Sequence record: MK573636
Direction: 5' to 3' (one strand)
Origin: Escherichia phage vB_EcoM_PHB13
Length of the DNA: 64,000 nucleotides
Below are positions 7,773 to 60,829 of the stretch, piece after piece; position 1 is the first letter of the stretch; each line of letters begins with the position of its first letter. Position numbers and translations under genes: made by a program. The notes beneath the pieces are model-generated. The model was not told the origin of the DNA and did not search any database. It saw nothing but the letters and a program-made list of their open reading frames with translations.

Positions 7773-8429
7773 ATGAAATTGATTGCACTTTGTGGTAAAA
7801 AGCGCGTAGGAAAAGACACTGCCGCGTTAATCATTGATGGACACAGTTATCAACTGGCAGCACCGATCAAAGAAATCTTATGCGAATGCCAACCAGACTT
7901 AGGTCTGACTTATCTTGACTTTGACGGGTTGGGGCGTGACAGAGAAGCCGATCTAGGTATTGATACATACACAGCGCATAAGTGGTTTATTCAGTGTCTG
8001 CTTATGCTAGATTCGAAGTATGGCGGTAGTTCCTTTACTTGTGATAGTCTGGCTGAGATTTACAAGGTCGTTAATGAGATCGGCGAAAAACATAATAACG
8101 TCTGGTCTATTCGTCTTATGTTAACCACTCTCGGTACTGACATAATGGTTAACTTGATTAATCCGCTTTATTGGTGTAATCTCTTCGTGAATGAGTTTAT
8201 GAAGCGCAAAAGTGAAGAAGGGTATTTTGTAGTAGTTGATGTGCGTCAGCCTATTGAAATTGCTCTCATGCGTACTATGGGTGCTAAGGTGTTGCATATT
8301 CAGCGTGATACCGGTATTGTATCGACTCACTCCACCGAAAAAGGAATTTTGCCTATTGACGGTGAAACCATTATCATAAATAATGGTACATTAGAAGAAT
8401 TTGAAAGCGCGATTCTCGCGAACATTTAA
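7773..8429 (+). CDS. 1: deoxynucleoside monophosphate kinase gp1
   Basis: 218 aa; N-terminal P-loop (LCGKKRVGKDT) with the T4 gp1 pattern; synteny 3-1-57A. Confidence 0.8.
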   Translation: MKLIALCGKKRVGKDTAALIIDGHSYQLAAPIKEILCECQPDLGLTYLDFDGLGRDREADLGIDTYTAHKWFIQCLLMLDSKYGGSSFTCDSLAEIYKVVNEIGEKHNNVWSIRLMLTTLGTDIMVNLINPLYWCNLFVNEFMKRKSEEGYFVVVDVRQPIEIALMRTMGAKVLHIQRDTGIVSTHSTEKGILPIDGETIIINNGTLEEFESAILANI

Positions 8430-14362: not shown

Positions 14363-14364
14363 CA

Positions 14365-14580: not shown

Positions 14581-14581
14581 T

Positions 14582-14773
14582 ATGAGATTTGCATTTGGTT
14601 TTACCGTGATGTTGATTATTGCTCTGAGTATGTGTACCGGAATGCTTGTATTTGGCCTTGCAAACGGATTTGGCATTTATAATAATCCGTGGGTTGATTG
14701 GGGAATGGTTGTCGTTAATGCGATCCTGATTGGTGCTAATACAAGAACTCTATGCAGGATCGCCGGAATCTAA
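14582..14773 (+). CDS. small membrane protein
   Basis: 63 aa with two TM segments, directly upstream of the endolysin. Confidence 0.4.
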   Translation: MRFAFGFTVMLIIALSMCTGMLVFGLANGFGIYNNPWVDWGMVVVNAILIGANTRTLCRIAGI

Positions 14774-28973: not shown

Positions 28974-29405
28974 ATGGTTTATCCAACTCCTAGTAAGATT
29001 TACATTGATGATACCCATTTTATGGTTGATATGATGGGTATAAAGTTTAGTGGTATTGTTAAAATTGTAGAATGGGAATTGCACGGTCAACCTGTCACTG
29101 ACTATGACCATTACATTCCTTTTTTGGGTGATGACAATTTTGTCTCGTTTGACCATGAAGGTTACATGATCTTTGAACAGTCTGACGTACCGACCTATCT
29201 GGCAATGATGCAAATTCCTACGAAGGTTTCTGTTGCTGAGGGTGATTGCGATTGCTGCGGTTGGTATAGTGTAACAGATATTAAGTTGCCATCCGGTAAA
29301 GAACTCTATAACGAAGACCATTTTGGAAACTGCAACTTTCCGTGTGATTGGGATGAATTTTTCGAACTGGTAGAAACTGAAAGAACTTATTTAAGGAAGG
29401 GATAA
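28974..29405 (+). CDS. hypothetical Cys-rich protein
   Basis: 143 aa; CDCC and CNFPC motifs. Confidence 0.4.
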   Translation: MVYPTPSKIYIDDTHFMVDMMGIKFSGIVKIVEWELHGQPVTDYDHYIPFLGDDNFVSFDHEGYMIFEQSDVPTYLAMMQIPTKVSVAEGDCDCCGWYSVTDIKLPSGKELYNEDHFGNCNFPCDWDEFFELVETERTYLRKG

Positions 29406-30220
29406 TGAAGAAAGCATTAGGTTTAATTCCCTATACTGGCAATAAGGAAAAGTTATTGCCTGGTGTTAGTAAGTATTTCCCTAAGCACTACAACCGCTTT
29501 GTTGATGCCTTTTGTGGTGGTTTGAGCGTGTCTCTGTATGTTGAAGGTGATGTGCTGGCTAATGACTATGATCACCGTTTAATTGACGCTTACAAGGCCA
29601 TTGATGCGTGTCCTGACCCAGTTTCTACGATCAAGCGGATTATTGCCGAGAATGGTTTGTCTCGCGATGATAAAGATGCTTACATGGCATTCCGCAAGAA
29701 GTATAACGAGAATCCAGATCCGCTATCTCTGTTTGTGTTGATTCAACATAGTTTTAGCAACATTAACCGCCATAACCGGAAGGGCGAATTTAATGCTAAT
29801 TTTGGTCGCCGGACTTTTAACGAAAACGCGGTAGAGCGTGTCCTGAATTTTAAGGAAGAAAACAAAGACGGTCGAATCAGTTTTACGTCTGGACGATATG
29901 ACGAGATCGAGATCTTGCCGGATGATTTCGTTTTCCTTGATCCGCCATATTGGATCACGTCGGCAGAATATAATAAGTTCTGGAGTGAAGAAGAAGAGAT
30001 TAAATTCTACATGTGGATAGAATCATTAATGTCTAGCGGTGCTAAGTTTGGATTAAGCAATGTTACTCACCACAAAGGGAAAGTTAACAACCATCTGCTC
30101 GATTTTATCGAACGTAATGATGTTTCTGTTGTTGAACTGGATAAAACATATTGTTTAGATCGTAGCGGGGGTAAAAAATCCGATACTAAGGAAGTTTATG
30201 TCACCAATGTTAAAATATGA
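29405..30220 (+). CDS. dam: DNA adenine methyltransferase (Dam-like, N6-A MTase)
   Basis: 271 aa; N-terminal AdoMet motif (FVDAFCGGLSV) and catalytic DPPY (FLDPPYW), typical of T4 Dam / GATC MTases. Confidence 0.85.
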   Translation: MKKALGLIPYTGNKEKLLPGVSKYFPKHYNRFVDAFCGGLSVSLYVEGDVLANDYDHRLIDAYKAIDACPDPVSTIKRIIAENGLSRDDKDAYMAFRKKYNENPDPLSLFVLIQHSFSNINRHNRKGEFNANFGRRTFNENAVERVLNFKEENKDGRISFTSGRYDEIEILPDDFVFLDPPYWITSAEYNKFWSEEEEIKFYMWIESLMSSGAKFGLSNVTHHKGKVNNHLLDFIERNDVSVVELDKTYCLDRSGGKKSDTKEVYVTNVKI

Positions 30221-42815: not shown

Positions 42816-43349
42816 GTGTCTGATTATGTAAACAATAAAGAGCTTTACGAAGAAATTTGCCGTTGGAAACAACAAATTGCAGCAGAAGGTCGGCAAGTTC
42901 CAATGAGCGATCAAATCGGCCTAGCAATTATGCAAATCTCTAAAAATCTATCACGTCGTTTTAACTTTTCTGGTTATAGTCAAACATGGCGCGAAGAAAT
43001 GATCGACGACGGAATCGAAGCGGCGGTCAAGGGTTTGATTAATTTTGACGAGACAAAGTATAAAAATCCTCATGCTTACATCACGCAAGCGTGCTTTAAT
43101 GCTTTTGTACAGCGCATTAAAAAAGAGAGAACAGCGACAGCCGCAAAATACAAATATTTTGTGCATCATGTATATGACGAACGCGACGCTGATATGTGCC
43201 AGATTGCTGATGAGGCATTCATACAGGACATTTACGATAAAATCAACAACTACGAGGAATCGGTCAATAAACCGAAAGCGCCAAAGGTTGAAGATGTATT
43301 GACTGAGGAATTGCCTAGCCTGGACCAATTTTATGAGATTGAAAATTAA
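42816..43349 (+). CDS. 55: late-transcription sigma factor gp55
   Basis: 177 aa (GTG start); size, order (nrdH...55...47) and conserved central region ([21 protein letters not shown]...[15 protein letters not shown]) fit T4 gp55. Confidence 0.8.
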
Positions 43350-43566
43350 CATTTCCCGTTTGCTGGAAGAAGCAGAGTTTGAAACTGACCTCGTGCCGTA
43401 TTTCGCCAAATTATTTTTGAGAGATTGCGGCGTTCCGGTGATTATCGATCCGTGCAATATCAAATCACCGGATCTTGAGGTCTTGACGGGTACAATCTCA
43501 CATAGCTATAATGTATCAGAAGATGAATTTTCTTTAATAATTGATTATATCCCAGAGGTAAAATAA
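43333..43566 (+). CDS. hypothetical protein
   Basis: 77 aa. Confidence 0.4.
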
Positions 43567-43567
43567 C

Positions 43568-43855
43568 ATGACTTACGATGAACAGCATGACAAGATTGCA
43601 GTGAATGAAGTAGACAAAGTACAAGCAGAACTAGAGGCTAAAGCCGCTAAGAAAGCGGAAAAGATCTTGCGTAAGAACTCGCGAGAGATTGCACGACTTA
43701 AGCGGTGGGCTGAACAAGCTATCATCGATGATAACCGTGATGCGTATATCTACGCTATCGGAAAGTTACGTGATATCTACAAACAGCCACACACGCCAGA
43801 ACTGCTTTCTGCTATGTGGATTAGTACACGGCAAACGGTATTAAGTATGCTGTAA
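43568..43855 (+). CDS. hypothetical protein
   Basis: 95 aa, basic and helical. Confidence 0.4.
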   Translation: MTYDEQHDKIAVNEVDKVQAELEAKAAKKAEKILRKNSREIARLKRWAEQAIIDDNRDAYIYAIGKLRDIYKQPHTPELLSAMWISTRQTVLSML

Positions 43856-43945
43856 TGGCTTTATAAGGGAGACTCCGAAAGGGGTTTCCCTTTTTATTTT
43901 TCTGTGATATAGTGAGAGCATCGAAAACGAAGAGAGGAAGAGACT

Positions 43946-44971
43946 ATGAAAATTTTGCTTTTAGGTGATCTGCATACTGGCATCGGTGGCGATGATCCGT
44001 GGGTGCATGAGTATATTTTAGACACGATCAAGAAAGCTGTTGATTATTCTAAAGAAAATGGTATTAAGATATGGATTCAAACAGGGGATTGGTTTGATTG
44101 TCGCAAGGCTATCACACATGAAACCATGAAATTTAACCGTACTAAGGTCATCCCATTACTGGAAGAGGCAGGAATCACCTGTTATATCACGGTCGGGAAT
44201 CATGATATGTTTAAACGCAATAAGATCCAGCCTAACGCGCCGCGTGAAGTGTTAAGCCAGTATGATTGCATTAAGGTTATTGATAAGCCAGAAACAGTTA
44301 CCTTTGATGGGGTATCATTCGACCTGTTCCCGTGGTTTTGTGATGACAATAAATCCGAGGTTTTAGAGTTTATTCAAAATTCATTCAGCGAATATTGTGT
44401 AGGCCATTGGGAATTGTCCGGCTACTATTTCTATAAAGGGTTAAAATCCGAAGGTTATAGCGCGGACTTCCTCAAGAAATACCGTGAAGTGTTTTCCGGT
44501 CACTTTCATACTATCAGTGATGGCGGTAACGTAACGTATATTGGCACACCATACACACTAACGGCTGGCGACGAAAATGATCCGCGTGGTTTTTGGGTAT
44601 TCGATACAGATACACACAAAAAGGAGTTTATCCAGAATGACAAAACTTATCATGTGCGTATCACTTACCCGTCAGATGATAAAATCGATGTAGAACGCTT
44701 TAAAGGGCTTAGTGTGCGCCTAATTGCAACGGTCGCTGATAATGGGTTAACTAAGTTAGAAAGCGCGTTAGAAGCCGTTGTGCATAAGCTAAAAGTTGTC
44801 CATAAGCTGGAGAGTAGCGCATCACAGGAAACAGGTGTTATTGAAGTTAAAAGCACTATTCAGATGGTCTATGAATATCTGGAAGAACAAAACCTAGAAC
44901 CGGAAGAACTTGCGGCGGTCAAGCGTATTTCTGATGAACTTTTAGCCGAAGTAAATAACGCAAAAAGTTAG
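43946..44971 (+). CDS. 47: recombination endonuclease subunit gp47 (Mre11-like)
   Basis: 341 aa; calcineurin-like phosphoesterase motifs (LGDLHTG, GDWFD, GNHD, GHFH); T4 gp47 is 339 aa. Confidence 0.85.
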   Translation: MKILLLGDLHTGIGGDDPWVHEYILDTIKKAVDYSKENGIKIWIQTGDWFDCRKAITHETMKFNRTKVIPLLEEAGITCYITVGNHDMFKRNKIQPNAPREVLSQYDCIKVIDKPETVTFDGVSFDLFPWFCDDNKSEVLEFIQNSFSEYCVGHWELSGYYFYKGLKSEGYSADFLKKYREVFSGHFHTISDGGNVTYIGTPYTLTAGDENDPRGFWVFDTDTHKKEFIQNDKTYHVRITYPSDDKIDVERFKGLSVRLIATVADNGLTKLESALEAVVHKLKVVHKLESSASQETGVIEVKSTIQMVYEYLEEQNLEPEELAAVKRISDELLAEVNNAKS

Positions 44972-45000
44972 TTGACGCGGGGAGAAATCCCCGTTATACT
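44972..45000 (+). promoter_or_regulatory. sigma70-type early promoter cassette with spacer palindrome
   Basis: TTGACG-CGGGGAGAAATCCCCG-TATACT. Confidence 0.55.
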
Positions 45001-45025
45001 CTCTAAAAATTGATTGGAGGTTGTT

Positions 45026-45271
45026 ATGGTTACTAATGCACTGAAAGAAATCAACGAAGGTTTGTCGAAATTCACTAAGATCCATGTATTTGAGGTTGTG
45101 CGAGATGGTCAGTATATGCTATCATTTCGGTCTAACTATGGTTTATGGACTCATGACGAAATCCCATTTGATCGTGAAAATATCACCAAAGAGTGGCTAA
45201 CAAACATCGTATCCCGTAAGGTTGCTGATATTACCCAGAATGTTATTGCTCGTGAATCGTGGAGTATGTAA
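45026..45271 (+). CDS. hypothetical protein
   Basis: About 81 aa after GGAGG SD. Confidence 0.4.
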   Translation: MVTNALKEINEGLSKFTKIHVFEVVRDGQYMLSFRSNYGLWTHDEIPFDRENITKEWLTNIVSRKVADITQNVIARESWSM

Positions 45272-45272
45272 A

Positions 45273-45590
45273 ATGAAAACACTTGCACAAAAAGTAGTAG
45301 AATTTAATGCAGCTTTGCCTATGTTTGCTCGACGTAAGGGGATCTCCGTTGATGTATGGTATTCTAAAGAGCATGAAGAAGTTCGGATGATGGTCGAAAA
45401 GCGACTCACCGATACTACTGTTAAGTGTAAGATTCGCTCTATTCCTCGCGCGGAAATAGAATTTGATGAAAGCTATTACTTTACGCTGCGTCATGTGCTG
45501 AAACAAGCAGTGGATGAACTTTTAGAAGACCTGAAACAATATGAGATTGAACGAGGAACATATTATGAATACGACTATGGTCGCGGCTGA
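45273..45590 (+). CDS. hypothetical protein
   Basis: About 105 aa. Confidence 0.4.
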   Translation: MKTLAQKVVEFNAALPMFARRKGISVDVWYSKEHEEVRMMVEKRLTDTTVKCKIRSIPRAEIEFDESYYFTLRHVLKQAVDELLEDLKQYEIERGTYYEYDYGRG

Positions 45591-46137
45591 TTCTGATTGG
45601 TTGGTAATGGAACATTTTATTAAATTGGTGCACACATACACACTAAAACAATCACATTGCAAGAATCCGATCTATGGCTATCTGAAAGCGCGTATTGCTA
45701 AAATGTGGGGTCAGCCAGTGGTTAAGATGTGGTATGATGACGGTTATCGTCGTTACCTTAAAGTGATTCATCCACAGGATTTGATGGTAACTATGGACAT
45801 TGGCGACTTTGTAAAAGACAAAGTAGAATCCATTATTAAGAGTGTGGTTGGTGAATATAATCCGATTGTATATGGTGCTTTCGTACAGTGGAAACAATCC
45901 AGCAAGTATTATTTTCCGAATACTCCATTGACGTTAACAGGTTGGATCTCTGTCATGCATAGTGGGGTATTCCTGGAAGCGTCAGAGACAATGTATAAAG
46001 GGTATATTCTCCCGCATCGACTGGTGAAATGTGATTACCGCTTGACTGTAGGTGAATTTCGCGATATTCTGGAACAGCAAGCGGAAGACCTGCAAGGTGA
46101 AATTGAAGAATTTTTAGAGGAACATAAACTAAAATGA
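45565..46137 (+). CDS. hypothetical protein
   Basis: About 190 aa from GAGGAACATATT-ATG. Confidence 0.4.
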   Translation: MNTTMVAADSDWLVMEHFIKLVHTYTLKQSHCKNPIYGYLKARIAKMWGQPVVKMWYDDGYRRYLKVIHPQDLMVTMDIGDFVKDKVESIIKSVVGEYNPIVYGAFVQWKQSSKYYFPNTPLTLTGWISVMHSGVFLEASETMYKGYILPHRLVKCDYRLTVGEFRDILEQQAEDLQGEIEEFLEEHKLK

Positions 46138-46397
46138 TTCTATCGATGACCTACCTTAGACACAGGGTTATAGAAGGTCTTCGCGAATATCTGGCATTGA
46201 ATAAAGGGATTTATGTTGATCCCTTTATGACATATGATCCTGCGACACTGGATTATGTGATCATGTTGCCAGATCGCAGAGACACATTAGTTAAAGTGAA
46301 GGCGGCAAGTGTTTACAACATTGATGAAGATGTGTTAGCATTTAATATTATGGAATGTGTGATTGCGGAGTGGCTTAATGGCAAAGTTAAATTTTAA
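46134..46397 (+). CDS. hypothetical protein
   Basis: 87 aa; ATGA overlap. Confidence 0.4.
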   Translation: MILSMTYLRHRVIEGLREYLALNKGIYVDPFMTYDPATLDYVIMLPDRRDTLVKVKAASVYNIDEDVLAFNIMECVIAEWLNGKVKF

Positions 46398-48060
46398 AAC
46401 CTTGCGCTATCAAAATATAATGAGCGTGGGTGCTGAACCTGTTGAGATTCAGCTAGACGGATTCAAAAAGACACTAATCACTGGTGTCAACGGTGCTGGT
46501 AAATCGACCATGATCGAGGCGCTTTGCTTTGTGTTGTTCGGTAAACCGTTTCGTAGTATCAAGAAAGGCCAATTGATTAACAGCGTCAACAAAAAGAAAC
46601 TGTTAGTCGAAGTCTGGTTTGAACTGGACGGGAAAGAGTTTTATATCAAACGTGGTCAAAAACCGGAAGTATTCGAAGTGCATCGAGACGGTCAAAAGAT
46701 CGACGAGAGCGCAAGCACCAAAGACTTTCAGGAATATTTTGAAGGTATCATAGGAATGAACCTAGCCAGCTTTAAACAGATCGTTGTTTTAGGCACTGCT
46801 GGTTATGTTCCGTTTATGAGTCTTCCGGCAGCGGGTCGCCGTAAACTGGTCGAGGATTTGCTTGATATTGCTACGCTAGGCGAAATGGATAAACTGAATA
46901 AAGCGTATGTGCGCGAGATAACCCAGAATATCCAAATGCAGGAAATGAAAGCTAATCACGTTCAGCAACAAATCAACACTCATAAAAAGTACATAGAGGA
47001 CGCGAGCAAGGCTAGTGCCGAGAATCTACAGCGTTTGCAGAATATGTATGATAAAGAGGTAGAATCGGCTAAAGCATTTAAAGCCGAAGAAACGCGCTTG
47101 ACCGATGAGCTATTGGCTGTTGTTATGCCGGAAGATCCTAGCGCGGCATTGGCTAAAATTAATACGGCTATCGCACAGATTGGTGCGCAGATCCAGAACT
47201 TTGACCGTGTTATCCATATGCACGAGAAAGGCGGGATCTGTCCTACGTGCACACAACCGATCATTCAAGGTAATGATCAAGCTGTACGCGAACAAAAAGC
47301 ACAAGCAGAACATAAACTGTCTCTGATTGACGAGAAACGCGTAGAATACGCAGAGAAGGCCAATTCTTTCCAGACAGCACAAACTAAGGTCTTGGAAATT
47401 AAACGCGCTATAGAGTCACAGAGAGCGAATTTAACAGCATCTGTAGGTCGGGCTAAACAGATCCAGAAAGAAATTCAGGAATTACAAAAAGAAAGGGTTG
47501 ACAATTCCGAAGAACTTGCTAAACTGGAACACGAACTGGTAGAGATTACTAATGAAAAATCAAAGCTAGTTCTTGAAAAATATCACCGTGGATTTGTAAC
47601 AGAAATGTTGAAGGATTCCGGTGTTAAGGCGTCTATCGTCAAGAAATATATTCCATATTTCAATGATCGGATTGCGTATTATCTTGATATCATGGAAGCG
47701 GATTATATCTTTACGCTAGATGAAGAGTTTAACGAAACAATCAAATCACGGGGGCGTGAATCGTTTTCGTATACATCGTTCAGTCAAGGCGAAAAGGCAC
47801 GTATTGACCTTGCGATGCTCTTTACATGGCGTGATGTTGCTGGTAAAGTATCTGGTACTAATATTTCTTTGTTGGTGCTCGACGAAATTTATGATGGGGC
47901 TACGGACGTTCAAGGCGTAAAAGCACTTGATTCCATCATTGACAAATTAGATGATAACGTGTATATTATCAGCCATCGTGACCATAACCCTGATGATTTT
48001 AGCCGTCATCTCAAGATGGTTAAACGTGGGCGATTCACTGAAATGAATGTTAACATTTGA
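46378..48060 (+). CDS. 46: recombination endonuclease subunit gp46 (Rad50/SbcC-like ATPase)
   Basis: 560 aa; N-terminal Walker A (GVNGAGKST), long central coiled coil with CxxC zinc hook (CPTC), C-terminal ABC signature/Walker B (SQGEKARIDLA...LLVLDE). Confidence 0.85.
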   Translation: MAKLNFKTLRYQNIMSVGAEPVEIQLDGFKKTLITGVNGAGKSTMIEALCFVLFGKPFRSIKKGQLINSVNKKKLLVEVWFELDGKEFYIKRGQKPEVFEVHRDGQKIDESASTKDFQEYFEGIIGMNLASFKQIVVLGTAGYVPFMSLPAAGRRKLVEDLLDIATLGEMDKLNKAYVREITQNIQMQEMKANHVQQQINTHKKYIEDASKASAENLQRLQNMYDKEVESAKAFKAEETRLTDELLAVVMPEDPSAALAKINTAIAQIGAQIQNFDRVIHMHEKGGICPTCTQPIIQGNDQAVREQKAQAEHKLSLIDEKRVEYAEKANSFQTAQTKVLEIKRAIESQRANLTASVGRAKQIQKEIQELQKERVDNSEELAKLEHELVEITNEKSKLVLEKYHRGFVTEMLKDSGVKASIVKKYIPYFNDRIAYYLDIMEADYIFTLDEEFNETIKSRGRESFSYTSFSQGEKARIDLAMLFTWRDVAGKVSGTNISLLVLDEIYDGATDVQGVKALDSIIDKLDDNVYIISHRDHNPDDFSRHLKMVKRGRFTEMNVNI

Positions 48061-48277
48061 CAGAGTAACGCAGCCGGAGTTAGAATTGTATACCTTAATC
48101 AATCTATATTCCGGTGAAGAATATGTAGTTAGTATGGGGGATATGAAAAACAGCATATACAGCGATGCAGACATAACAAAAATGTTGTCTTGTCGTCATC
48201 ATGAGTTTATGCTGGTCCCCAACTTTGATAAACTTGATTACCCTGATGCTGGGGTTGCAACAAACTTTAGAACGTGA
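48047..48277 (+). CDS. hypothetical protein
   Basis: 76 aa. Confidence 0.35.
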   Translation: MLTFDRVTQPELELYTLINLYSGEEYVVSMGDMKNSIYSDADITKMLSCRHHEFMLVPNFDKLDYPDAGVATNFRT

Positions 48278-48307
48278 TATACTGATTTTATTTTGGAGAT
48301 TAATATT

Positions 48308-48685
48308 ATGACTACTTCCGCAAACCTGGCTAAAATTACTGTAGCAGACATTCAGAACAAGAAAACCAGTCTCGAATTTGACCGAGCAATGAACAAGATC
48401 CGTAAAGCGTGGGTACTACAAATGCCAGAAAGCGAGAAAGCTAAAATGAAGGTTATCCCGCAGCAAGCACGCTTTGAACTGTACGCGCATATTGATGATA
48501 TGGTGCAAAAAGAATGGATCGCGGCAATGCGCAAGTATTACGATGATTCAATTGCTAAAGGCGCTAAAACTATTCGAGGTAAAGATATTCTCGAAAAGGG
48601 TTATCAGATTGACACCGATGAACTGCTGATTGAAGCCGCTAGCGTAGTAGTAACTCGTCTGATCGCAATTGCTGATGGGAAGTGA
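48308..48685 (+). CDS. hypothetical protein
   Basis: About 125 aa from GGAGATTAATATT-ATG. Confidence 0.4.
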   Translation: MTTSANLAKITVADIQNKKTSLEFDRAMNKIRKAWVLQMPESEKAKMKVIPQQARFELYAHIDDMVQKEWIAAMRKYYDDSIAKGAKTIRGKDILEKGYQIDTDELLIEAASVVVTRLIAIADGK

Positions 48686-48689
48686 TAGA

Positions 48690-49067
48690 ATGAAACGTAT
48701 GAGCTTAAAAGAACAATTAATGTTTATCGACCTTGACTATAAACTATTCCCGATACCGTTTGATTATGTCAAACGTGGCTGTGTGGTTAATTTTGATATT
48801 GGAACCGATAGCAACATTTGGCATTTTGTTGTTGATGAGTTTGTTGATAATGTGATTCGTCGTAAACTTGCGTTTGATGTTCGTGGTGATCTGGTATATC
48901 TCGAAGGTAAGAAGACCGCAAAGAATCCTGTTACTGTCTATGCTCTGCAACAATACTTGACAGCATACATTGGATTTAAGTATACTCATGCTATTGATGA
49001 GCAAGCTGCGGAAAACTTCCAAAACAAAATGCTCAAGATTCGTAACGAACACGCAGTAAACCCATAA
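48690..49067 (+). CDS. hypothetical protein, possible RNA polymerase-binding protein RpbA by position
   Basis: About 125 aa, immediately upstream of gene 45 where T4 has rpbA (129 aa). Synteny only. Confidence 0.3.
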   Translation: MKRMSLKEQLMFIDLDYKLFPIPFDYVKRGCVVNFDIGTDSNIWHFVVDEFVDNVIRRKLAFDVRGDLVYLEGKKTAKNPVTVYALQQYLTAYIGFKYTHAIDEQAAENFQNKMLKIRNEHAVNP

Positions 49068-49099
49068 TTAATTGATTAACATGATAAGGTGATTTGAAT

Positions 49100-49786
49100 A
49101 TGAAACTAACTAAAGAAACTGTTGCGATCCTGAAAAACTTTTCCGCTATTAACCCAGGTATCATCCTGAAAAAAGGAAACGTCCTGATCACCAAAAACAT
49201 GACAAACGTTGTATATGGTGAAGCGACTCTGAATCAAGAACTGGAACACGAAATCGGGATCTATGATCTTAACTCTTTCCTGGGCATTCTGAATCTGGTG
49301 GGCGATGAAGCAGATATTACGGTTGATAACCGCACCGGAAACATTCGTGTGTCTAATGATCGTCTGAAAATTAATTATCCTGGTGCTAGTGCTGCTGCTA
49401 TCGTATCACCGAAAGGCCGAGTTACTCCACCTGCAAGCGATGTAGATTACGAACTGAGCAACGACGATCTGAAACAGCTTATGAAAATGAGCAATCAGCT
49501 TAAAGTGGATCGCCTTGAATTTCTTCCGATTGATGGTCGTCTGATGATCAAAGGTTGGGAAGAGATTGACAAAAATAATCCTAATGAGATGTTTTGTCTT
49601 GATATGGGCGAATATACCGGAACCGCAGACTTCCATTTCTTTATTCGTAAAGATAACATGAAACTGGTTGCTACTGACTTCGGCGATTACAAACTTAGCT
49701 TCACTCGCCGTAAGGCTGTATGGCTGGCAAGTGAAACCGTATCTTATATGATCGCGTGTGACCTTGACTCAAGCTACACCGACTAA
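49100..49786 (+). CDS. 45: sliding clamp gp45
   Basis: 228 aa, same length as T4 gp45; N-terminus MKLTKETVAILKNFSAINPGIILKKG matches the T4 pattern. Confidence 0.85.
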   Translation: MKLTKETVAILKNFSAINPGIILKKGNVLITKNMTNVVYGEATLNQELEHEIGIYDLNSFLGILNLVGDEADITVDNRTGNIRVSNDRLKINYPGASAAAIVSPKGRVTPPASDVDYELSNDDLKQLMKMSNQLKVDRLEFLPIDGRLMIKGWEEIDKNNPNEMFCLDMGEYTGTADFHFFIRKDNMKLVATDFGDYKLSFTRRKAVWLASETVSYMIACDLDSSYTD

Positions 49787-49851
49787 TATAATATTTGTGG
49801 GGAGTGTAAATACTCCCCGTTTTAATGATGTAATTTGTGAGAGGTGATTAT

Positions 49852-50826
49852 ATGCTGAGTGTTAATGAAAATGAGTTTCAGTGGGAACAGAAATACCGTC
49901 CGAAATCAATTTCTGAATGTATTCTGCCGGAAGCAGATAAAAAGATCTTCGCGCAGATTGTTAAGCAAGGCCGAATCCCTTCTATGATCCTGCATAGCCC
50001 ATCGCCAGGTACTGGTAAAACAACCGTTGCTAAGGCGCTTTGCGAAGATGTGGGTGTTGATTATCTGTTTGTTAACGGCGCAGATTGTAAGATTGATTTT
50101 ATCCGCGATGAGATTACACGCTTTGCGCAGAGTGTATCACTCGATGAAGAAAAACGAGAAAAAGGCAAAGTTGTTATTATCGATGAGTATGACCGAGCGG
50201 GGTTGGCTGACGCTCAAAGACACTTGCGTAGTTTCTCTGAGGCATACTCAAACAACGTGACATTCATTATCACAGCAAACGATCTAGAAGGTATTATCCC
50301 GGCATTACGATCTCGATTTGATCCCATCACGTTTGGATCTCCGACTAAAGATGATCAGCTTCGCATGATGAAAGAAATGATCGTCCGGTGTAAAGCAATT
50401 CTTGATAAAGAAGGTGTACCAGTAGAAGAAATGCGCGTATTAGCGGAATTGGTTAAGCAGAACTTCCCAGACTTCCGGCGCGTAATGAAACTTTTGGACC
50501 GCTACGCTAAACATGGTAAAATTGATGCTGGCGTATTGAGCATGGTTATCGAAAGTAGCAATACCGAAGTAACCGATGTGGTGGAAGCACTTAAAACTAA
50601 ACAGTTTGCTAATGTGCGTAAACTCGCACCACGCTATACCAATACATACGCTCAATTTGTCAAGAAACTTTATAATGAGTTGTATACTCAAGTTAAGCCA
50701 GCTTCTATTATTCGTCTCACTGAGATTATCGGTGAAAATAATCAGATGTTTGCGCACGCGGCTGATAAAGAGATTCACATTGTCTTTTTGTTAATGCAAT
50801 TAATGGTTGAATTGGAGTTCGTATAA
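49852..50826 (+). CDS. 44: clamp loader large subunit gp44 (AAA+)
   Basis: About 324 aa; Walker A SPSPGTGKTT, Walker B VVIIDEYD, sensor SRF; T4 order 45-44-62. Confidence 0.85.
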   Translation: MLSVNENEFQWEQKYRPKSISECILPEADKKIFAQIVKQGRIPSMILHSPSPGTGKTTVAKALCEDVGVDYLFVNGADCKIDFIRDEITRFAQSVSLDEEKREKGKVVIIDEYDRAGLADAQRHLRSFSEAYSNNVTFIITANDLEGIIPALRSRFDPITFGSPTKDDQLRMMKEMIVRCKAILDKEGVPVEEMRVLAELVKQNFPDFRRVMKLLDRYAKHGKIDAGVLSMVIESSNTEVTDVVEALKTKQFANVRKLAPRYTNTYAQFVKKLYNELYTQVKPASIIRLTEIIGENNQMFAHAADKEIHIVFLLMQLMVELEFV

Positions 50827-51404
50827 TGTTAGGTCAATTTTTCGGTGAAGATGATACACAATTAAACGAGCATGAAATTGCATGGCGCTCTCGTGATTGG
50901 GAAAAGGTGTCTGAATTAGCTGACACATTCACCGAGAAAACCGACAATGCATTGTTTGCTCTGATGGATCATATCACCTTAGATAAACAGCGTGTTAATG
51001 TGGGAAACAATTCTGCATATAACCAGAGATGGATTAATACCGCTCTTTCCCAGCACGCAGATTGCCTATATAGCGCGTATGTGATGAATTTAATCGGTCA
51101 TGGCCTCCCAGATCAAATGCATTTTGATTATCTCTTACAGAGTATTTCTAAGGGGAAACGATACGGTAAATGGGCTAAACTAACAGAAGAATTGGACCAA
51201 AAATTGGTTTTAATGGCAGTGGCGAAAGCATATTGTGTAAATATGGATGACGCCCGGTTTTATCTCGATTTGGCTAATGAAAAGGGATATATGGACAAGT
51301 TATTGAAGCACATTAAACCGTATGCGACCGATGAACTTTTGGCGGGTGTTACTAAGAATCAGACAGAAAGGAAACGACTTAAAAAGATTATAGAAAGGTG
51401 GTAA
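50826..51404 (+). CDS. 62: clamp loader small subunit gp62
   Basis: 192 aa; ATGTTAG overlap with the gp44 stop; position as in T4. Confidence 0.7.
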   Translation: MLGQFFGEDDTQLNEHEIAWRSRDWEKVSELADTFTEKTDNALFALMDHITLDKQRVNVGNNSAYNQRWINTALSQHADCLYSAYVMNLIGHGLPDQMHFDYLLQSISKGKRYGKWAKLTEELDQKLVLMAVAKAYCVNMDDARFYLDLANEKGYMDKLLKHIKPYATDELLAGVTKNQTERKRLKKIIERW

Positions 51405-51405
51405 A

Positions 51406-51768
51406 ATGATTGAAATTAATTTGATTAGTCCTGAAAACTTCCTTAAAATTAAGGAGACTTTAACCCGCTGCGGCATTGCCAACAATCGTGACAAGACCCT
51501 GTATCAGTCTTGTCATATTCTCCAGAAGAAAGGGCGCTATTACATCGTTCATTTCAAGGAGTTGTTGAAATTAGATGGTCGTAGTGTTAAAATGACGTGG
51601 GAAGATGAATTACGCCGTAATAACATTGCAAAACTTCTTGCGCAGTGGAATCTGTGTACCCTGATTGATAGTGATTTTGAAACTACCGAAGTTAATAATT
51701 TCCGTGTACTGTCTTTCAAACAGAAAGAAGAGTGGACGCTGATCGAGAAATATCAGATCGGACGCTAA
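51406..51768 (+). CDS. regA: translational repressor RegA
   Basis: 120 aa; MIEINL...HILQKKGRYYIVHFKELL; T4 RegA is 122 aa at the same position. Confidence 0.8.
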   Translation: MIEINLISPENFLKIKETLTRCGIANNRDKTLYQSCHILQKKGRYYIVHFKELLKLDGRSVKMTWEDELRRNNIAKLLAQWNLCTLIDSDFETTEVNNFRVLSFKQKEEWTLIEKYQIGR

Positions 51769-51789
51769 GATACTGATGGGATAGGGGTA

Positions 51790-51818
51790 TTGACAAACTA
51801 AGTCGATTCCCCTATAAT
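51790..51818 (+). promoter_or_regulatory. sigma70-type promoter upstream of gene 43 with palindrome around the -35
   Basis: AGGGG-TATTGACAAACTAAGTCGATT-CCCCT then TATAAT; canonical TTGACA-N17-TATAAT. Confidence 0.55.
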
Positions 51819-51850
51819 GAGTGTCTTTCGTAAGTGAAGGAGTTTATATT

Positions 51851-54529
51851 ATGTATTTTCTGTCATGTGAGCGAGTAGGTGATAAGATCTACGAGCGTTA
51901 TATTGATGATGCTGGACAAGAACAAGAGCGTTACGTTGAATATACGCCAACTTTATTTCATCATGCCGCGCCTGGTATGGTTACGAATTATAAAGATATC
52001 TATGGCAAGCCTTGCATTGCTAAAAAATTCCCCTCTATGAACGAGGCCAACAAATGGCGTAAAAAGATGGGGGAGATGGGGCAAGAGGCACTAGGGATGG
52101 ATGATTTTATCATCTCCTATCTGTCTGATACGTATAAAGGCGAGATTCGATATGACCGAAATAAAATCCGTGTAGCATGGGTTGATATCGAGGTCACTGC
52201 CCCAGAATTTCCTAAACCAGAAGAAGCGAAATATCCTATCGATGCAATTACGCATTATGATTCCGTACATGATCGTTTCTTTGTATTTGATTTGAAAGGA
52301 AAAAACGGTGAATCTTGGGAAGCAAGCAAGTCTATTCTTCGCCCAGATATTGTAGAACGTGTTGTTTATAACGTCTATGACACAGAAGATGAATTGCTGT
52401 TAGAATACATCCGATTCTTTGAGGAAAACCGACCCGTTGGTTTCACTGGCTGGAACACAGAAACATTCGATATTCCATATATCATTAAACGTATCAGTAA
52501 TAAGTTCGGAAGTAGAACCGCTAACCGTCTAAGCCCGTGCGGTAAGATTAAATCCCGAATCTCACAGGATGATTTTGGCAACGAGCGTGAAGCATTTACG
52601 ATCATGGGGATCGAAAGCCTTGATTATATTGACCTGTACAAGAAATTTAGCTTTACGACTCAACCAACATATGCATTAGATTATGTTGCTGAATACGAGA
52701 CAGGAATCGGTAAGGTTGATTATGATGGTCCGTTAAAGAAATTGCGTGATGACAACCATCAACTTTACATCGATTATAACATCGGCGACGTTGATCGTGT
52801 GCTGGCGATTGATAAAAAGCGTGGATTTATCGATCTGGTGTATAGCCTATGTTTCTATGCAAAGATTAAATTTAACCATGTTTATAACCCGATGAAAGTA
52901 TGGGATGCTATTATCTTCGGATCTCTGAAAGCTGAGGGTAAAGTAGTACCGGAAAATAAGATACAACCTAAGCAGACGTATCCAGGCGCATTTGTAAAAG
53001 AACCTGTGCCAAATGCTTACCGTTGGATGATGAGCTTTGACTTAACAAGTTTGTACCCATCTATTATTCGACAGGTTAATATTTCGCCTGAAACAATCGC
53101 TGGATCTTTTGATGCTGCACCGATGCACGAGTATATCAATAAAACTGCACCACGTCCTAGTGATGAGTATTCTTGCTCGCCTAACGGATGGATGTATCGA
53201 AAAGATATTCATGGTATCGTACCGATTGAGATTAAAAAGGTATTCGATCAGCGTAAGCAGTACAAAAACATGATGTTGGCATGTGATCGCAATGCTGAAC
53301 TATGTAAAGCGATTCTACACGATGAAAATCATGTTTATGGGGGAACCATTAGCTATAGCGTTGAAGTGCGTCACGACTTCGATGAAGCGTTTAAATCGAT
53401 GCTTTCTGAATTAAGTAAAGACGCCTTAGAGAAATTGCTGGAAGAATGTAAAGACGAGTCGATCTTGTGCAATACAAACCAGCTTTCTCGAAAAGTTTTG
53501 ATCAACTCCCTTTATGGTGCGTTGGGGAATCCTAAATTCCGTTTTTATGATCTCCGTAACGCTAGTGCGATCACACTGTTCGGTCAGCTTGCAATTCAGT
53601 GGATTGAGCGTAAGATTAACGAATACTTAAACGAGCTTTGCGGAACAACCGATTTTGCATATGTTCGTTATTGTGATACTGACTCCGTTTATGTGCTGGT
53701 TAACAATGTTGTTGATAAGGTTGGCGGGGAAGACCGTTTCGACGATACCGAAAAACTTGTTGACTTCCTTGATAATTTCGGTAAACATCGAATGGAACCT
53801 ATTATCGACAAGGGATATCGCGAGTTATGCGAGTACATGAACAACTATGAGCACTTGATGTTTATGGACCGCGAGGCAATTGCTGGTCCTCCGTTGAAAT
53901 CTGCGGGTATCGGTGGATTCTGGACTGGTAAAAAGCGTTATGCTCTTAATGTTTGGGATATGGAAGGAACGCGCTTTGCTGAACCTAAGCTAAAAATCAT
54001 GGGCTTGGAAACGCAACGTAGCTCCACCCCGAAAGCATGTCAGAAATCACTGAAAGAATGTATTCGCCGTATGTTGCAGGAAGGTGAAGAGTCATTGCAG
54101 GAATACTACGGTATTTTTGAGCAAGAATTTAGAAAACTTGACTATCTTGATGTTGCTGCGGTATCATCTGCAAACAACCTACAGAAATACAGCGATTCAA
54201 ACGGGTATCCGATTAAGGGTTGTCCGTATGCGGTTAAGAGTGTATTGTGTTATAATCGTAATGCTCGAAAATTCGGACTAGATCCGATTCGTGAAGGCGA
54301 GAAGGTTATGATTGTACCGCTGAAAGATCGAAATCCGTTTGGAGAAATCTGTTTTGGTTGGTTGTCCGGTACTCGTATTCCTCCAGAGATTGAAAGCGAG
54401 GTGTTAAAGTGGTTAGACTGGTCTTTGTTGTTTAATAAGACTTTCGTCAAACCACTGGAGAACATTACAACGGCTGCAAAGCTGCAATATGAAAAAGTGG
54501 CATCTCTTACAGACCTGTTTGACATTTAA
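51851..54529 (+). CDS. 43: DNA polymerase gp43 (family B)
   Basis: 892 aa from the ATG at 51851; exonuclease motifs (WVDIEV, YNIGDVD), polymerase motifs (SFDLTSLYPSIIRQ, KILINSLYGALG, YCDTDSVY); strong resemblance to T4 gp43 throughout. Confidence 0.92.
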   Translation: MYFLSCERVGDKIYERYIDDAGQEQERYVEYTPTLFHHAAPGMVTNYKDIYGKPCIAKKFPSMNEANKWRKKMGEMGQEALGMDDFIISYLSDTYKGEIRYDRNKIRVAWVDIEVTAPEFPKPEEAKYPIDAITHYDSVHDRFFVFDLKGKNGESWEASKSILRPDIVERVVYNVYDTEDELLLEYIRFFEENRPVGFTGWNTETFDIPYIIKRISNKFGSRTANRLSPCGKIKSRISQDDFGNEREAFTIMGIESLDYIDLYKKFSFTTQPTYALDYVAEYETGIGKVDYDGPLKKLRDDNHQLYIDYNIGDVDRVLAIDKKRGFIDLVYSLCFYAKIKFNHVYNPMKVWDAIIFGSLKAEGKVVPENKIQPKQTYPGAFVKEPVPNAYRWMMSFDLTSLYPSIIRQVNISPETIAGSFDAAPMHEYINKTAPRPSDEYSCSPNGWMYRKDIHGIVPIEIKKVFDQRKQYKNMMLACDRNAELCKAILHDENHVYGGTISYSVEVRHDFDEAFKSMLSELSKDALEKLLEECKDESILCNTNQLSRKVLINSLYGALGNPKFRFYDLRNASAITLFGQLAIQWIERKINEYLNELCGTTDFAYVRYCDTDSVYVLVNNVVDKVGGEDRFDDTEKLVDFLDNFGKHRMEPIIDKGYRELCEYMNNYEHLMFMDREAIAGPPLKSAGIGGFWTGKKRYALNVWDMEGTRFAEPKLKIMGLETQRSSTPKACQKSLKECIRRMLQEGEESLQEYYGIFEQEFRKLDYLDVAAVSSANNLQKYSDSNGYPIKGCPYAVKSVLCYNRNARKFGLDPIREGEKVMIVPLKDRNPFGEICFGWLSGTRIPPEIESEVLKWLDWSLLFNKTFVKPLENITTAAKLQYEKVASLTDLFDI

Positions 54530-54590
54530 GATAAAGTGTGTATAATGGCGGGTGTTGGGTGACGATACCCGCCAATGTGAGAAATATATT

Positions 54591-54779
54591 ATGAGAGACA
54601 TTGAAAAGATTAAACGTGAACGTGAGGAAGGCATAGAGCATTTCAAGAAAGTTCACGGAAATCACAGTAACGAAGTATTTGTGACGATCAATGTTGATGC
54701 GATGAAAAAGTTAATTCAAGAGCACTACAAAGATCGAATAACAATGAAGCAATTAAAGTATTACGGATTAACTGAATAG
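54591..54779 (+). CDS. small hypothetical protein
   Basis: About 62 aa from GAGAAATATATT-ATG; the only ORF between genes 43 and uvsX. Confidence 0.4.
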   Translation: MRDIEKIKREREEGIEHFKKVHGNHSNEVFVTINVDAMKKLIQEHYKDRITMKQLKYYGLTE

Positions 54780-54790
54780 AGGTATTAATA

Positions 54791-55861
54791 ATGTCTGTAC
54801 TGGAAAAACTGAAAAAGAACTCTACCCTGAAAACTACTGCGGTACTGTCTAAATCCAGCTTCTTTAACGAAAAAACAAATACTCGCACTAAGATCCCGAT
54901 GCTGAATATTGCGTTTTCCGGTGATCTTAAAAAAGGCTTTCAATCTGGTCTGATTTTCTTTGCTGGTCCGTCTAAGCACTTTAAATCAAACATGGGATTA
55001 ACCTGTGTTAGTGCATACATGAAACAGAATCCTGATGCGGCTTGTTTGTTCTTTGATTCTGAGTTCGGTATTACTCCCGCTTATCTGGAATCTATGGGCG
55101 TAGATCCTGATCGCGTAGTGCATGTTCCAATCAAGAACATCGAAGAACTTAAATTTGAAATCATGAACCAGCTTGAGCAAATTACCCGTGAAGATAAAGT
55201 GATCATCTTTATTGACTCAATTGGTAACTTAGCAAGTAAAAAAGAAGTTGAAGACGCGATTAATGAGAAATCCGCACAGGATATGACGCGAGCGAAAGCA
55301 CTTAAAGGCTTGTTCCGTATGGTTACGCCGTATCTGACTATGAATGATATCCCGTGCATCGCTATTAACCACACTTACGAAACGCAAGAAATGTTTAGTA
55401 AGACCGTTATGTCCGGCGGTACGGGCGCGATGTACAGCGCGAATGAAGTTTTTATTATCGGTCGTCGCCAGCAGAAAGAAGGTACAGAGTTGACTGGTTA
55501 TGAGTTTATATTGAAGGCCGATAAGTCACGAACTGTTAAAGAAGGGTCGAAGTTCCCGATTGATGTAACGTTTAGCGGTGGTATTAACCCATATTCCGGT
55601 TTACTGGATCTCGCAATCGAGCTTGGGTGGGTCGTCAGCCCGTCGAAAGGTTGGTATTCTCGTTCCATTCTGAATACTGAAACAGGAGAAATGGAAACAG
55701 AAGAACGCAAGTTCCGTGCTAAAGAAACTAATAGTGTTGATTTTTGGAGACCGCTTCTGACTAATGATAAGTTTAACGAAGCGATTAACGAACACTATCA
55801 GCTGGGTCAAGTTATAAGCGATGAGGCAGTTGACAAAGAAGTCGAAGATATGTTAGCATAA
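54791..55861 (+). CDS. uvsX: RecA-like recombinase UvsX
   Basis: 356 aa; Walker A AGPSKHFKS, conserved IAINHTYETQEMFSKTVMSGGTG region typical of T4 UvsX. Confidence 0.85.
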   Translation: MSVLEKLKKNSTLKTTAVLSKSSFFNEKTNTRTKIPMLNIAFSGDLKKGFQSGLIFFAGPSKHFKSNMGLTCVSAYMKQNPDAACLFFDSEFGITPAYLESMGVDPDRVVHVPIKNIEELKFEIMNQLEQITREDKVIIFIDSIGNLASKKEVEDAINEKSAQDMTRAKALKGLFRMVTPYLTMNDIPCIAINHTYETQEMFSKTVMSGGTGAMYSANEVFIIGRRQQKEGTELTGYEFILKADKSRTVKEGSKFPIDVTFSGGINPYSGLLDLAIELGWVVSPSKGWYSRSILNTETGEMETEERKFRAKETNSVDFWRPLLTNDKFNEAINEHYQLGQVISDEAVDKEVEDMLA

Positions 55862-55872
55862 CAATGGTAGTA

Positions 55873-55895
55873 AAGGGGCTACGTGCCCCTTTTTC
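55873..55895 (+). terminator. intrinsic terminator after uvsX
   Basis: GGGGCTACGTGCCCC hairpin plus TTTTT. Confidence 0.6.
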
Positions 55896-55916
55896 ATATC
55901 TAGAGAGGATTATATT

Positions 55917-56234
55917 ATGGATAAGAAACCAACAAGTTTAGAAGAAGCACACAGCTTGATTCAAGAAGCAATGAAGACAGTTATCCAGGAACTGATAATT
56001 GTTGATGAAGAGGGAGAACATCATATTGTCTATATTCATAATGTTGAATACGATCCAGACACTAAAGGTATTGTGGTCGACTACTCCACGCCGTCAGATC
56101 GTGATGTGGTATATCCACACGTCATTAAGGCGTTAACCGCGCAGATCAAAGAAGCAGAAGAAAAGTTGAAAAAAGAAACTTTCTGGTATAAACTCAAGAC
56201 CTTTGTTATGCGTGTAGTTGGGGGCTATGTATGA
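55917..56234 (+). CDS. 40: gp40-like head vertex assembly chaperone (by position)
   Basis: 105 aa between uvsX and the gene 41 helicase, as gene 40 is in T4; C-terminal hydrophobic tail. Confidence 0.4.
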   Translation: MDKKPTSLEEAHSLIQEAMKTVIQELIIVDEEGEHHIVYIHNVEYDPDTKGIVVDYSTPSDRDVVYPHVIKALTAQIKEAEEKLKKETFWYKLKTFVMRVVGGYV

Positions 56235-60296: not shown

Positions 60297-60310
60297 TTAA
60301 TGAGGTGAAT

Positions 60311-60829
60311 ATGTCAGAATTTAATTCTTGTGCTGGTCTGGTTAACGAAAAAGATATTAACGCGGCTATCGCCGCATATCATCACGCTATTGCAGAAGGT
60401 AAAGATCCGTTTCAGGTGATGCTCGAAATGCAAACTGGTTTGCAGGTTGCATTATCCGAAAAATTTGATTGGGTCCCAAATCCAACTAAGCTAGAGACTT
60501 GCGGTGAAATGCTGGATTGGATGCAACGGATGGATGACGCTATCGCAGACGAAACACGAGAGCTTTACACATCGCTGGGTGGAATGTCCAATGGTAAAGA
60601 TGCAAGTGCAATCTGGAAAATGTGGAAAAAGAACCACGGAGAAGCGCGAGCGCGTAAATTCTCTGAACTGTCACCGGAAGATCAGCTTGAAGTGAAATTT
60701 GAATTTGTGGACGCGATCCACTTCATTCTGTCAAAGATGATCCCGCTGGGTATTGACGCTCAAGAACTCTTTATTCTGTACTATCTGAAAAATGCTGAAA
60801 ACTTCGCCCGTCAAGAACGCGGCTACTAA
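60311..60829 (+). CDS. gp56-like nucleotide pyrophosphatase candidate (assignment by position and size)
   Basis: About 172 aa acidic protein after gene 61, where T4 carries gene 56 (dCTPase, 171 aa). No active-site motif verified. Confidence 0.4.
   Translation: MSEFNSCAGLVNEKDINAAIAAYHHAIAEGKDPFQVMLEMQTGLQVALSEKFDWVPNPTKLETCGEMLDWMQRMDDAIADETRELYTSLGGMSNGKDASAIWKMWKKNHGEARARKFSELSPEDQLEVKFEFVDAIHFILSKMIPLGIDAQELFILYYLKNAENFARQERGY

Follow-up and report, generated by a model that had tools for sequence, protein, structure and literature searches.

Absence of the T4 cytosine-modification genes and depletion of restriction sites in a Krischvirus genome segment

The lack of cytosine-modification genes is a well-documented and already known trait of the genus Krischvirus. 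In RB49-type phages, gene 42 and the glucosyltransferase (gt) genes are missing while gene 56 is present (Petrov 2010, Table 4, PMC2993671), and the absence of cytosine-modification genes from Krischvirus-type phages agrees with PMC12115623 (Table 4) and PMC8056088. At the level of the DNA itself, cytosine has been shown experimentally to be canonical in RB49, as HpaII and NheI both cleave its DNA (PMC4041780), and in TB34 by HPLC/MS (PMC13390438). The genus is further characterized by a G+C content of ~40% and by having no tRNA genes (PMC6563267). According to the literature, the RB43-like phages (Pseudotevenvirus) likewise lack 42, the gt genes, alc and denB and keep 56 and denA, but they form a different genus, in which ndd and a C5-cytosine methylase have been reported (PMC12115623 Table 4, PMC8056088).

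The DNA analysed here is a stretch of 64,000 nucleotides (the window) from Escherichia phage vB_EcoM_PHB13 (sequence record MK573636), corresponding to ~40% of a 164-kb genome; the content of the other ~100 kb is taken from relatives at ~97% identity. The window belongs to Krischvirus, the RB49-like T4-type phages, as 13 kb of it align at 100% coverage with 57 Krischvirus records, at 96.5–97.4% nucleotide identity. Close relatives are FL38, ECD7, Phi1, JSE and RB49 (96–97% identity), with FL38 being the closest (97.4%). Both of the compositional traits of the genus are found within the window, which has a G+C content of 40.2% and in which ARAGORN detected no tRNA genes along the 64 kb. Apart from three small insertions, the window runs colinear with FL38 and Phi1 over its entire length. 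Two segments, 4722-5856 and 30211-30940, are missing in Phi1, and the differences from Krischvirus phages in general consist only of insertions of the homing-endonuclease type and otherwise of scattered substitutions. The window shares with the Krischvirus phages (RB49, Phi1, JSE, GEC-3S and FL38; the ‘pseudo-T-even’ RB49 group) the gene order 55, a-gt.5, a-gt.4, 47 ... 43, ORF025, uvsX, the absence of 42, a-gt, b-gt, alc, denB, ndd and arn, and the retention of 56, dam, 1, cd, td, frd and denA.

While the backbone and the order of the replication and recombination genes are the same as in T4, the two junctions at which T4 carries its cytosine-modification genes are much shorter (Table 1). Between 55 and 47 the gap is 596 bp, compared with ~3.15 kb in T4, where the interval holds a-gt.5, a-gt.4, a-gt.3, a-gt.2, mobB, a-gt and 47.1; in the window only homologues of a-gt.5 and a-gt.4 are found. 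Between 43 and uvsX the gap is 261 bp, compared with ~3.6 kb in T4, and a single ORF, the homologue of Phi1 ORF025, stands in place of imm.1, imm, 42, b-gt and segA. This ORF encodes 75 aa if started from a GTG (54552) or 62 aa from an ATG (54591). We considered whether it could be a diverged imm and rejected this assignment, as it gave no alignment with T4 imm and no Pfam family, its one match being to PHROG 12120. Both junctions are conserved among relatives: 55 of 58 phage records are colinear with the window across the 55-47 junction, and 58 of 59 across the 43-uvsX junction. The ORF listing and a 1:1 map onto the Phi1 RefSeq record thus bear out the initial annotation, which had described two small ORFs and no gene of alpha-glucosyltransferase size between 55 and 47, and one ORF of about 62 aa between 43 and uvsX.

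Table 1. Features of the window discussed in the text, with positions counted from the first nucleotide of the window
Feature	Position	Strand	Basis and remarks
gene 1, dNMP kinase	7773..8429	+	Colinear with FL38 14021-14677, product of which matches Pfam DNMK (E 4e-68)
Dam, D12-class N6-adenine DNA methyltransferase	29405..30220	+	Pfam MethyltransfD12 (E 1e-29); 46% identity to T4 Dam; DPPY motif
gene 55, late sigma factor	42816..43349	+	ORF; maps onto Phi1 gene 55; upstream landmark
a-gt.5 homologue, predicted protein of 77 aa	43333..43566	+	32% identity to T4 a-gt.5 (E 4e-11); weak DUF5491 match; PHROG 1169
a-gt.4 homologue, predicted protein of 95 aa	43568..43855	+	43% identity to T4 a-gt.4 (E 3e-20); Pfam DUF2654 (E 1e-22)
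90-bp spacer	43856..43945	.	Site of a-gt.3, a-gt.2, mobB, a-gt and 47.1 in T4
gene 47, SbcD-like recombination nuclease subunit	43946..44971	+	ORF; Phi1 map; downstream landmark
gene 43, DNA polymerase	51821..54529	+	ORF; Phi1 map; probable ATG near 51851 by Phi1 homology
62-aa ORF, homologue of Phi1 ORF025	54591..54779	+	PHROG 12120 (E 1e-41), no assigned function
uvsX, RecA-like recombinase	54791..55861	+	ORF; Phi1 map; downstream landmark
gene 56 homologue, predicted NTP pyrophosphohydrolase of the dCTPase-dUTPase family	60305..60829	+	49% identity to T4 gp56 over full length (E 2e-60); Pfam dUTPase_2; PHROG 173

Absence from the T4 positions could also mean that gene 42 and a glucosyltransferase were relocated into the ~100 kb beyond the window, of which the window, as a minor part of the genome, would give no sign; the displacement of Dam (see below) indicates that T4 genes can occupy non-T4 positions in this lineage. 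Searching the six frames of the window with T4 gp42, a-gt and b-gt (tblastn) returned only noise, with best E-values of 2.8, 0.83 and 0.14, respectively, and no homologue of the three was found in positions 1-80499 of Phi1 (a-gt and b-gt noise at E of at least 0.14). Positions 1-126000 of FL38, which span everything outside the window, contained no homologue of a-gt or b-gt (noise at E of at least 0.14), and the sole gp42 match in FL38 beyond the window was the thymidylate synthase paralogue td (E 0.002, 23% identity), a distant paralogue whose detection serves as a positive control for the gp42 query. No gene 42 or glucosyltransferase is annotated anywhere in Phi1. None of the published surveys reports these genes in any Krischvirus (PMC13390438, PMC12115623, PMC2993671, PMC8056088), and the purge of restriction sites within the window, described below, argues for exposed cytosines. 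Relocation is therefore extremely improbable.

The loss extends beyond gene 42 and the glucosyltransferases. Alc, DenB and Arn act against DNA that contains cytosine or protect DNA with hydroxymethylcytosine (hmC), and these three, like Ndd, are meaningful only if the DNA of the phage itself is cytosine-free or carries hmC. T4 Alc, DenB, Ndd and Arn matched the window and the FL38 remainder only at noise level (tblastn, E of at least 0.03). The same search did detect DenA, Cd, Frd, RnlA and gp52. As a non-homologous enzyme could have taken over, we also examined the larger ORFs of the window that lack an annotation, among them those at 39272-40096, 41306-42775, 32709-33887, 45541-46137 and 57694-58329. 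Pfam showed no glycosyltransferase or thymidylate-synthase domain and nothing else relevant in them, and we rejected this possibility for these ORFs.

Among the genes that were kept are those for gp56, Dam, gp1, Cd, Frd and DenA, and the identities to T4 in this lineage are 56% for Cd and 49% for DenA, besides those given in Table 1 for gp56, Dam, a-gt.4 and a-gt.5. The initial annotation had noted that an ORF at the gene 56 position and a Dam methyltransferase are retained. Both are genuine homologues, and the gene 56 homologue lies directly downstream of gene 61, but Dam is off its T4 position: it adjoins nrdC here and lies between genes 61 and 56 in T4. In the T4 modification system, gp56 is the dCTPase-dUTPase that clears dCTP from the pool. 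No solved structure related by sequence to the gp56 homologue was found. Most likely this protein acts as a dUTPase, and possibly it has a tempered dCTPase activity, feeding dCMP to dUMP to dTMP for a genome of 60% A+T. The retained gp56, Cd, Td, Frd and gp1 would then make up a normal pathway of pyrimidine salvage and dTMP supply.

We next consider the restriction sites, in which the window differs markedly from T4. C/G-containing 6-bp palindromes have an observed/expected ratio of 0.58–0.64, compared with 0.97 in the matched T4 region, and 13 palindromes with an expectation of at least 5 have no copy at all, compared with none in T4. Sites absent at that expectation account for 13 of 53 palindromes and for only 4 of 1957 non-palindromic 6-mer pairs. 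EcoKI sites are likewise absent (0 observed, against expectations of 5.6 for the window and 14.4 for a 165-kb composite), and CCWGG occurs 31 times where 60.5 are expected. GATC, with 364 copies against 335 expected, shows no depletion. There are zero sites for EcoRI, HindIII, BamHI, KpnI, NcoI, PstI, SacII, SphI, StuI, ScaI and BspEI, while CCGG (HpaII/MspI) is found at 126 sites and sites for NheI (GCTAGC) and XbaI (TCTAGA) also exist. The depletion of palindromes and of EcoKI sites is the footprint expected where DNA has faced restriction over a long time with its cytosines unprotected, and the expectation that this genome would be open to host restriction is thereby substantiated, in a way that has no parallel in T4. 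Restriction-site avoidance is a general phenomenon of phages with unmodified DNA (e.g. PMC6286503), and the window resembles them in that palindromic type II sites and the site of a host type I enzyme (EcoKI) have been selectively lost. For RB49-type phages we found no description of restriction-site avoidance in the accessible literature, though the subscription literature may hold one.

The phage is not defenceless, because site avoidance and Dam methylation give it passive protection. The first part of such a defence against host restriction would be the purging of sites from the sequence, and the second the methylation of GATC by the phage Dam, together with that of the host. For the digests proposed in the initial annotation the footprint sets a trap: if EcoRI, HindIII, BamHI, KpnI and similar enzymes fail to cut, this will reflect missing sites rather than modified cytosine, and valid digests need enzymes whose sites exist (HpaII/MspI, NheI).

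Taken together, we are confident that the window represents a Krischvirus lineage that has the T4 order of replication and recombination genes but is without the whole hmC module, and whose DNA should carry canonical cytosine. The missing module comprises gene 42 (dCMP hydroxymethylase), the alpha- and beta-glucosyltransferases, Alc, DenB, Ndd and Arn. Lacking it, the phage would use ordinary dCTP in replication and package canonical-cytosine DNA, an inference in the case of this isolate. The prediction of unmodified cytosine ‘as in RB49’ is supported by the absent genes, by the canonical cytosine measured in RB49 and TB34 and by the restriction footprint; since the window is Krischvirus, the comparison with RB49 is literally true.

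A report on another isolate suggests a different possibility, namely that Krischvirus cytosine is hypermodified by a cryptic route not homologous to that of T4, which is on or off between near-identical isolates. In a 2026 study, DNA of phage SAP was reported to contain 5-hmdC, alpha-glucosyl-mdC and alpha-gentiobiosyl-mdC and to be sensitive to BrxU (PMC13390438). Room for such a pathway could be sought in the ~130-aa insertion in Krischvirus td, which has no assigned role, and in the many window ORFs without known function. However, RB49 and TB34 were measured as canonical (PMC4041780 and PMC13390438, respectively), SAP has 99.96% identity to TB34, the SNPs offered no lead, and no genes were found to explain the modification of SAP (PMC13390438). 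SAP shares its modification profile with seven Tequatrovirus phages of that collection, and its DNA was the one that BrxU cleaved least (PMC13390438); from these two observations we infer that a mixed or contaminated DNA preparation accounts for the SAP result no less well than a new pathway would. A strong purge of C/G sites, moreover, would not be maintained with hypermodified cytosine, and no purge is seen in T4. We regard a switchable hmC route as very unlikely; if true, it would mean that DNA chemistry is not predictable from gene content.

Canonical cytosine throughout the genome may still be an approximation, as phage methyltransferases encoded outside the window could place m5C or m4C at specific sites, a scenario that complements the loss of the hmC module. 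In Phi1 two more genes, ORF143 and ORF189, are annotated as DNA methyltransferases, both outside the window, and one of the two is given as a ‘DNA-cytosine methyltransferase’ for the RB49 group (PMC8056088). Neither gene is present in the window itself. The domains matched by the FL38 homologue of ORF143, however, are generic methyltransferase domains and those of the Eco57I type, as is usual for enzymes that methylate N6-adenine, and the FL38 homologue of ORF189 has no Pfam match. No modified nucleoside was detected in TB34 by HPLC/MS (PMC13390438), and digestion of RB49 DNA succeeds with HpaII, an enzyme sensitive to methylated cytosine (PMC4041780). Site-specific cytosine methylation is thus unlikely, and canonical cytosine remains our preferred reading of this genome.

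It is already appreciated that a T4-type virus with ordinary cytosine can be cloned and is a target for Cas9 as well as for restriction enzymes, that generalized transduction is possible with it, and that it is insensitive to type IV (modification-dependent) restriction. What the present analysis adds is that the lineage makes up for its unprotected cytosine by purging restriction sites from its DNA.

A megablast search with window 43000-56000 against a phage collection matched 67 records, 57 of them at 95-99% identity and 58 with at least 80% query coverage. The top matches, Escherichia phages FL38 (97.4%), ECD7, KMB43, Phi1 and JSE, all belong to the genus Krischvirus of the Straboviridae, the RB49 group, as does the window, in line with the likeness to RB49 proposed in the initial annotation. 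Its G+C content of 40.2% and its lack of tRNA genes agree with the genus description (PMC6563267). Gene-for-gene transfer of the Phi1 RefSeq annotation gave the plus-strand order 55.2, a 489-aa ORF, 55, a-gt.5, a-gt.4, 47, four small ORFs, 46, ORF033, rpbA, ORF031, 45, 44, 62, regA, 43, ORF025, uvsX, 40, 41. At the position of the 489-aa ORF, T4 has small ORFs only (55.1, 55.2). No homologue of MotA or AsiA, the T4 middle-transcription activator and co-activator, was found in the window and the FL38 remainder.

The 261 bp that separate the end of gene 43 (54529) from the start of uvsX (54791) contain a single ORF, whereas the T4 interval spans approximately 3.6 kb and holds imm.1, imm, 42, b-gt and segA. 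Between the end of gene 55 (43349) and the start of gene 47 (43946) lie two ORFs, homologues of a-gt.5 and a-gt.4; relative to T4, the block a-gt.3, a-gt.2, mobB, a-gt and 47.1 is missing. The initial reading of both junctions, a single ORF of about 62 aa in place of 42, imm and b-gt, and two small ORFs with no gene the size of a-gt, is thus confirmed, in the former case by the ORF listing and the Phi1 annotation. The 62-aa ORF falls in PHROG 12120 (function unknown); a relationship to T4 imm was considered and rejected, as the two are unrelated on comparison. Across the first junction, 58 of 59 matching records (RB49, Phi1, JSE, GEC-3S, SAP and TB34 included) align colinearly as one piece; across the second, 55 of 58 are colinear, with a homing endonuclease near gene 47 in at least one (JK32) of the three remaining records. 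The two junctions are invariant across Krischvirus.

Features of the window and the td gene of its relatives
Feature	Coordinates	Strand	Description
Segment between genes 4 and 2	4722-5856		1.1 kb; absent from Phi1 and FL38
340-aa ORF in this segment	4723-5745	-	HNH-like 'ERHHILPKS' motif; strand opposite to neighbours
Segment downstream of gene 38	25160-25361		202 bp; hyperplastic small-ORF region; no Phi1 match
Dam	29405-30220		D12-class N6-adenine methyltransferase; 46% identity to T4 Dam; DPPY motif
Homing endonuclease between dam and nrdC	30198-30953	+	251 aa; HNH + AP2 domains
Segment with this endonuclease	30211-30940		Missing from Phi1
489-aa ORF between 55.2 and 55	41306-42775	+	Phi1 ORF044; weak N-terminal DEAD-box helicase match; PHROG 2467, function unknown
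a-gt.5 homologue	43333-43566	+	77 aa; 32% identity to T4 a-gt.5, E 4e-11
a-gt.4 homologue	43568-43855	+	95 aa; 43% identity to T4 a-gt.4, E 3e-20; Pfam DUF2654
ORF between 43 and uvsX	GTG 54552 or ATG 54591	+	75 aa (GTG) or 62 aa (ATG, Phi1 annotation)
Gene 56 homologue	60305-60829		Full-length; 49% identity to T4 gp56, E 7e-51
td (outside window)	FL38 segment 39598-40830; Phi1 record 136878-138098		406-410 aa in Krischvirus; thymidylate synthase domain split into two Pfam stretches by ~130-aa insertion

For the 340-aa protein, neither Pfam nor tblastn against the Phi1, FL38 and T4 segments compared gave a match; it is probably a homing endonuclease of the free-standing type. In FL38 and Phi1, gene 2 is instead flanked on its other side by a different endonuclease ORF. 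The 251-aa endonuclease shares its length and description with GEC-3S ORF 63 (PMC3528706).

In a tblastn search of the entire window in six frames, T4 gp42, a-gt and b-gt returned only noise (best E 2.8, 0.83 and 0.14, respectively), and T4 gp56, run alongside them, matched the full-length gene 56 homologue. Pfam scans of its larger unannotated ORFs found no glycosyltransferase or thymidylate-synthase-like domain. Since FL38 record positions 1-22346 and 123434-end align colinearly with the window, FL38 22346-123434 served as a stand-in for the rest of the genome. Against FL38 1-126000 and Phi1 1-80499, a-gt and b-gt gave only noise, and the sole above-noise match to gp42 was td (23% identity, E 0.002), an expected superfamily paralogue that doubles as a positive control for sensitivity. 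In the window plus FL38 remainder, tblastn recovered T4 DenA (49%), Cd (56%), Frd (35%), RnlA and gp52; Alc, DenB, Ndd and Arn had no match. The complete Phi1 annotation likewise includes td, cd, frd, gene 1, denA, 56 and dam, and none of 42, a-gt, b-gt, alc, denB, ndd or arn. Extending the search beyond the window through FL38 and Phi1 therefore yielded no gene 42 or glucosyltransferase candidate besides the td paralogue.

Absence of the cytosine module is a defining and already published property of RB49-like phages, and is not new here. RB49-type phages lack gene 42, alc and denB (Petrov et al. 2010, PMC2993671, Table 4; PMC8056088 agrees), alpha-gt is limited to T-even-type phages and beta-gt to T4 and CC31, and gene 56 is found in nearly all T4 relatives (PMC2993671). 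HpaII and NheI cut RB49 DNA but not T4 or T4 gt DNA (PMC4041780), and HPLC/MS of TB34 DNA detected canonical nucleosides only (PMC13390438). The predicted unmodified cytosine is thus supported by the missing module and by experiment in RB49 and TB34.

One report is discordant. DNA of SAP, also a Krischvirus, was found to contain 5-hmdC (~1/3), alpha-gentiobiosyl-mdC (~2/3) and trace alpha-glucosyl-mdC, and to be BrxU-sensitive; it was the least cut in BrxU digestion in vitro (PMC13390438, 2026). SAP and TB34 are 99.96% identical; the study identified no genes behind the modification and drew nothing from comparing SNPs, and its authors leave the difference unexplained (PMC13390438). Both SAP (OZ034687.1) and TB34 (OX001802.1) are 96.6% identical to the window. 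A new cytosine-modification pathway could account for this chemistry, but we consider it improbable: the SAP profile is that of seven Tequatrovirus phages of the same collection (PMC13390438), which raises the suspicion of a mixed preparation, and a mixed stock or DNA sample would explain the data at least as well.

Homology to T4 gp56 (49%) and Dam (46%) bears out the retention of both genes, dam adjoining nrdC here and lying between genes 61 and 56 in T4. By sequence, the pyrimidine pathway genes 56, cd, td, frd, 1, the nrd genes and tk are present. Retention of DenA and gp56 has been flagged as a puzzle (PMC8056088). With DNA of the PHB13 isolate presumably synthesised from dCTP, the main role of gp56 would be to exclude dUTP from DNA and to supply dUMP for dTMP synthesis, to which Cd may add dCMP-derived dUMP in a genome of 60% A+T. 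The dCTP activity of the gp56 homologue would have to be lower or balanced, since a dCTPase as active as that of T4 would leave replication short of dCTP.

Long-unprotected cytosine should lead to selection against restriction sites, whereas hypermodified cytosine should not. We compared observed counts of all 64 six-bp palindromes with a maximal-order Markov expectation. The window lacks 24 of them altogether, including 13 for which at least 5 copies were expected: TCCGGA (0/26.6 expected), GAATTC (0/15.4), AAGCTT (0/15.2), GGATCC (0/13.8), AGCGCT (0/11.1), CCGCGG, AGTACT, AGGCCT, GGTACC, GCATGC, CCATGG, GCGCGC and GGCGCC. Palindromes containing C/G occur 415 times against 712 expected (ratio 0.58) and AT-only palindromes 275 times against 322, with depletion strengthening from two (349/467) to four (58/210) and six (8/35) G/C bases. 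For the 165-kb composite of window and FL38 remainder the ratio is 0.61, and 18 sites with expectation ≥5 are missing. Compared like for like over the gene 2-to-30 structural block, FL38 shows a ratio of 0.64 and 14 such absences, and T4 0.97 and none. As a control at the same expectation, 13 of 53 palindromes are absent from the window versus 4 of 1957 non-palindromic 6-mer pairs. Among the non-palindromes, CTGAAG (0/28.8), which we take to be the Eco57I/AcuI site, shows the strongest depletion. No EcoKI site (AACN6GTGC) occurs, against expectations of 5.6 for the window and 14.4 for the composite. CCWGG stands at half its expected count (31/60.5), and there is a deficit of GGCC (31/66.6) and AGCT (133/217). 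GATC shows no depletion (364/335), which fits Dam methylation; the opposite holds in the T4 structural region (segment 76001-126000), where GATC is scarce (61/175) even though T4 encodes Dam.

This depletion, absent from T4, supports unmodified cytosine and the predicted exposure to host restriction. We found no description of restriction-site avoidance in RB49-type phages in the searchable literature. One useful practical addition of the analysis is the set of zero-site cutters: many common six-base cutters have no site in this DNA, and uncut DNA must not be read as modified. The site counts show that the lineage copes with restriction by site avoidance.
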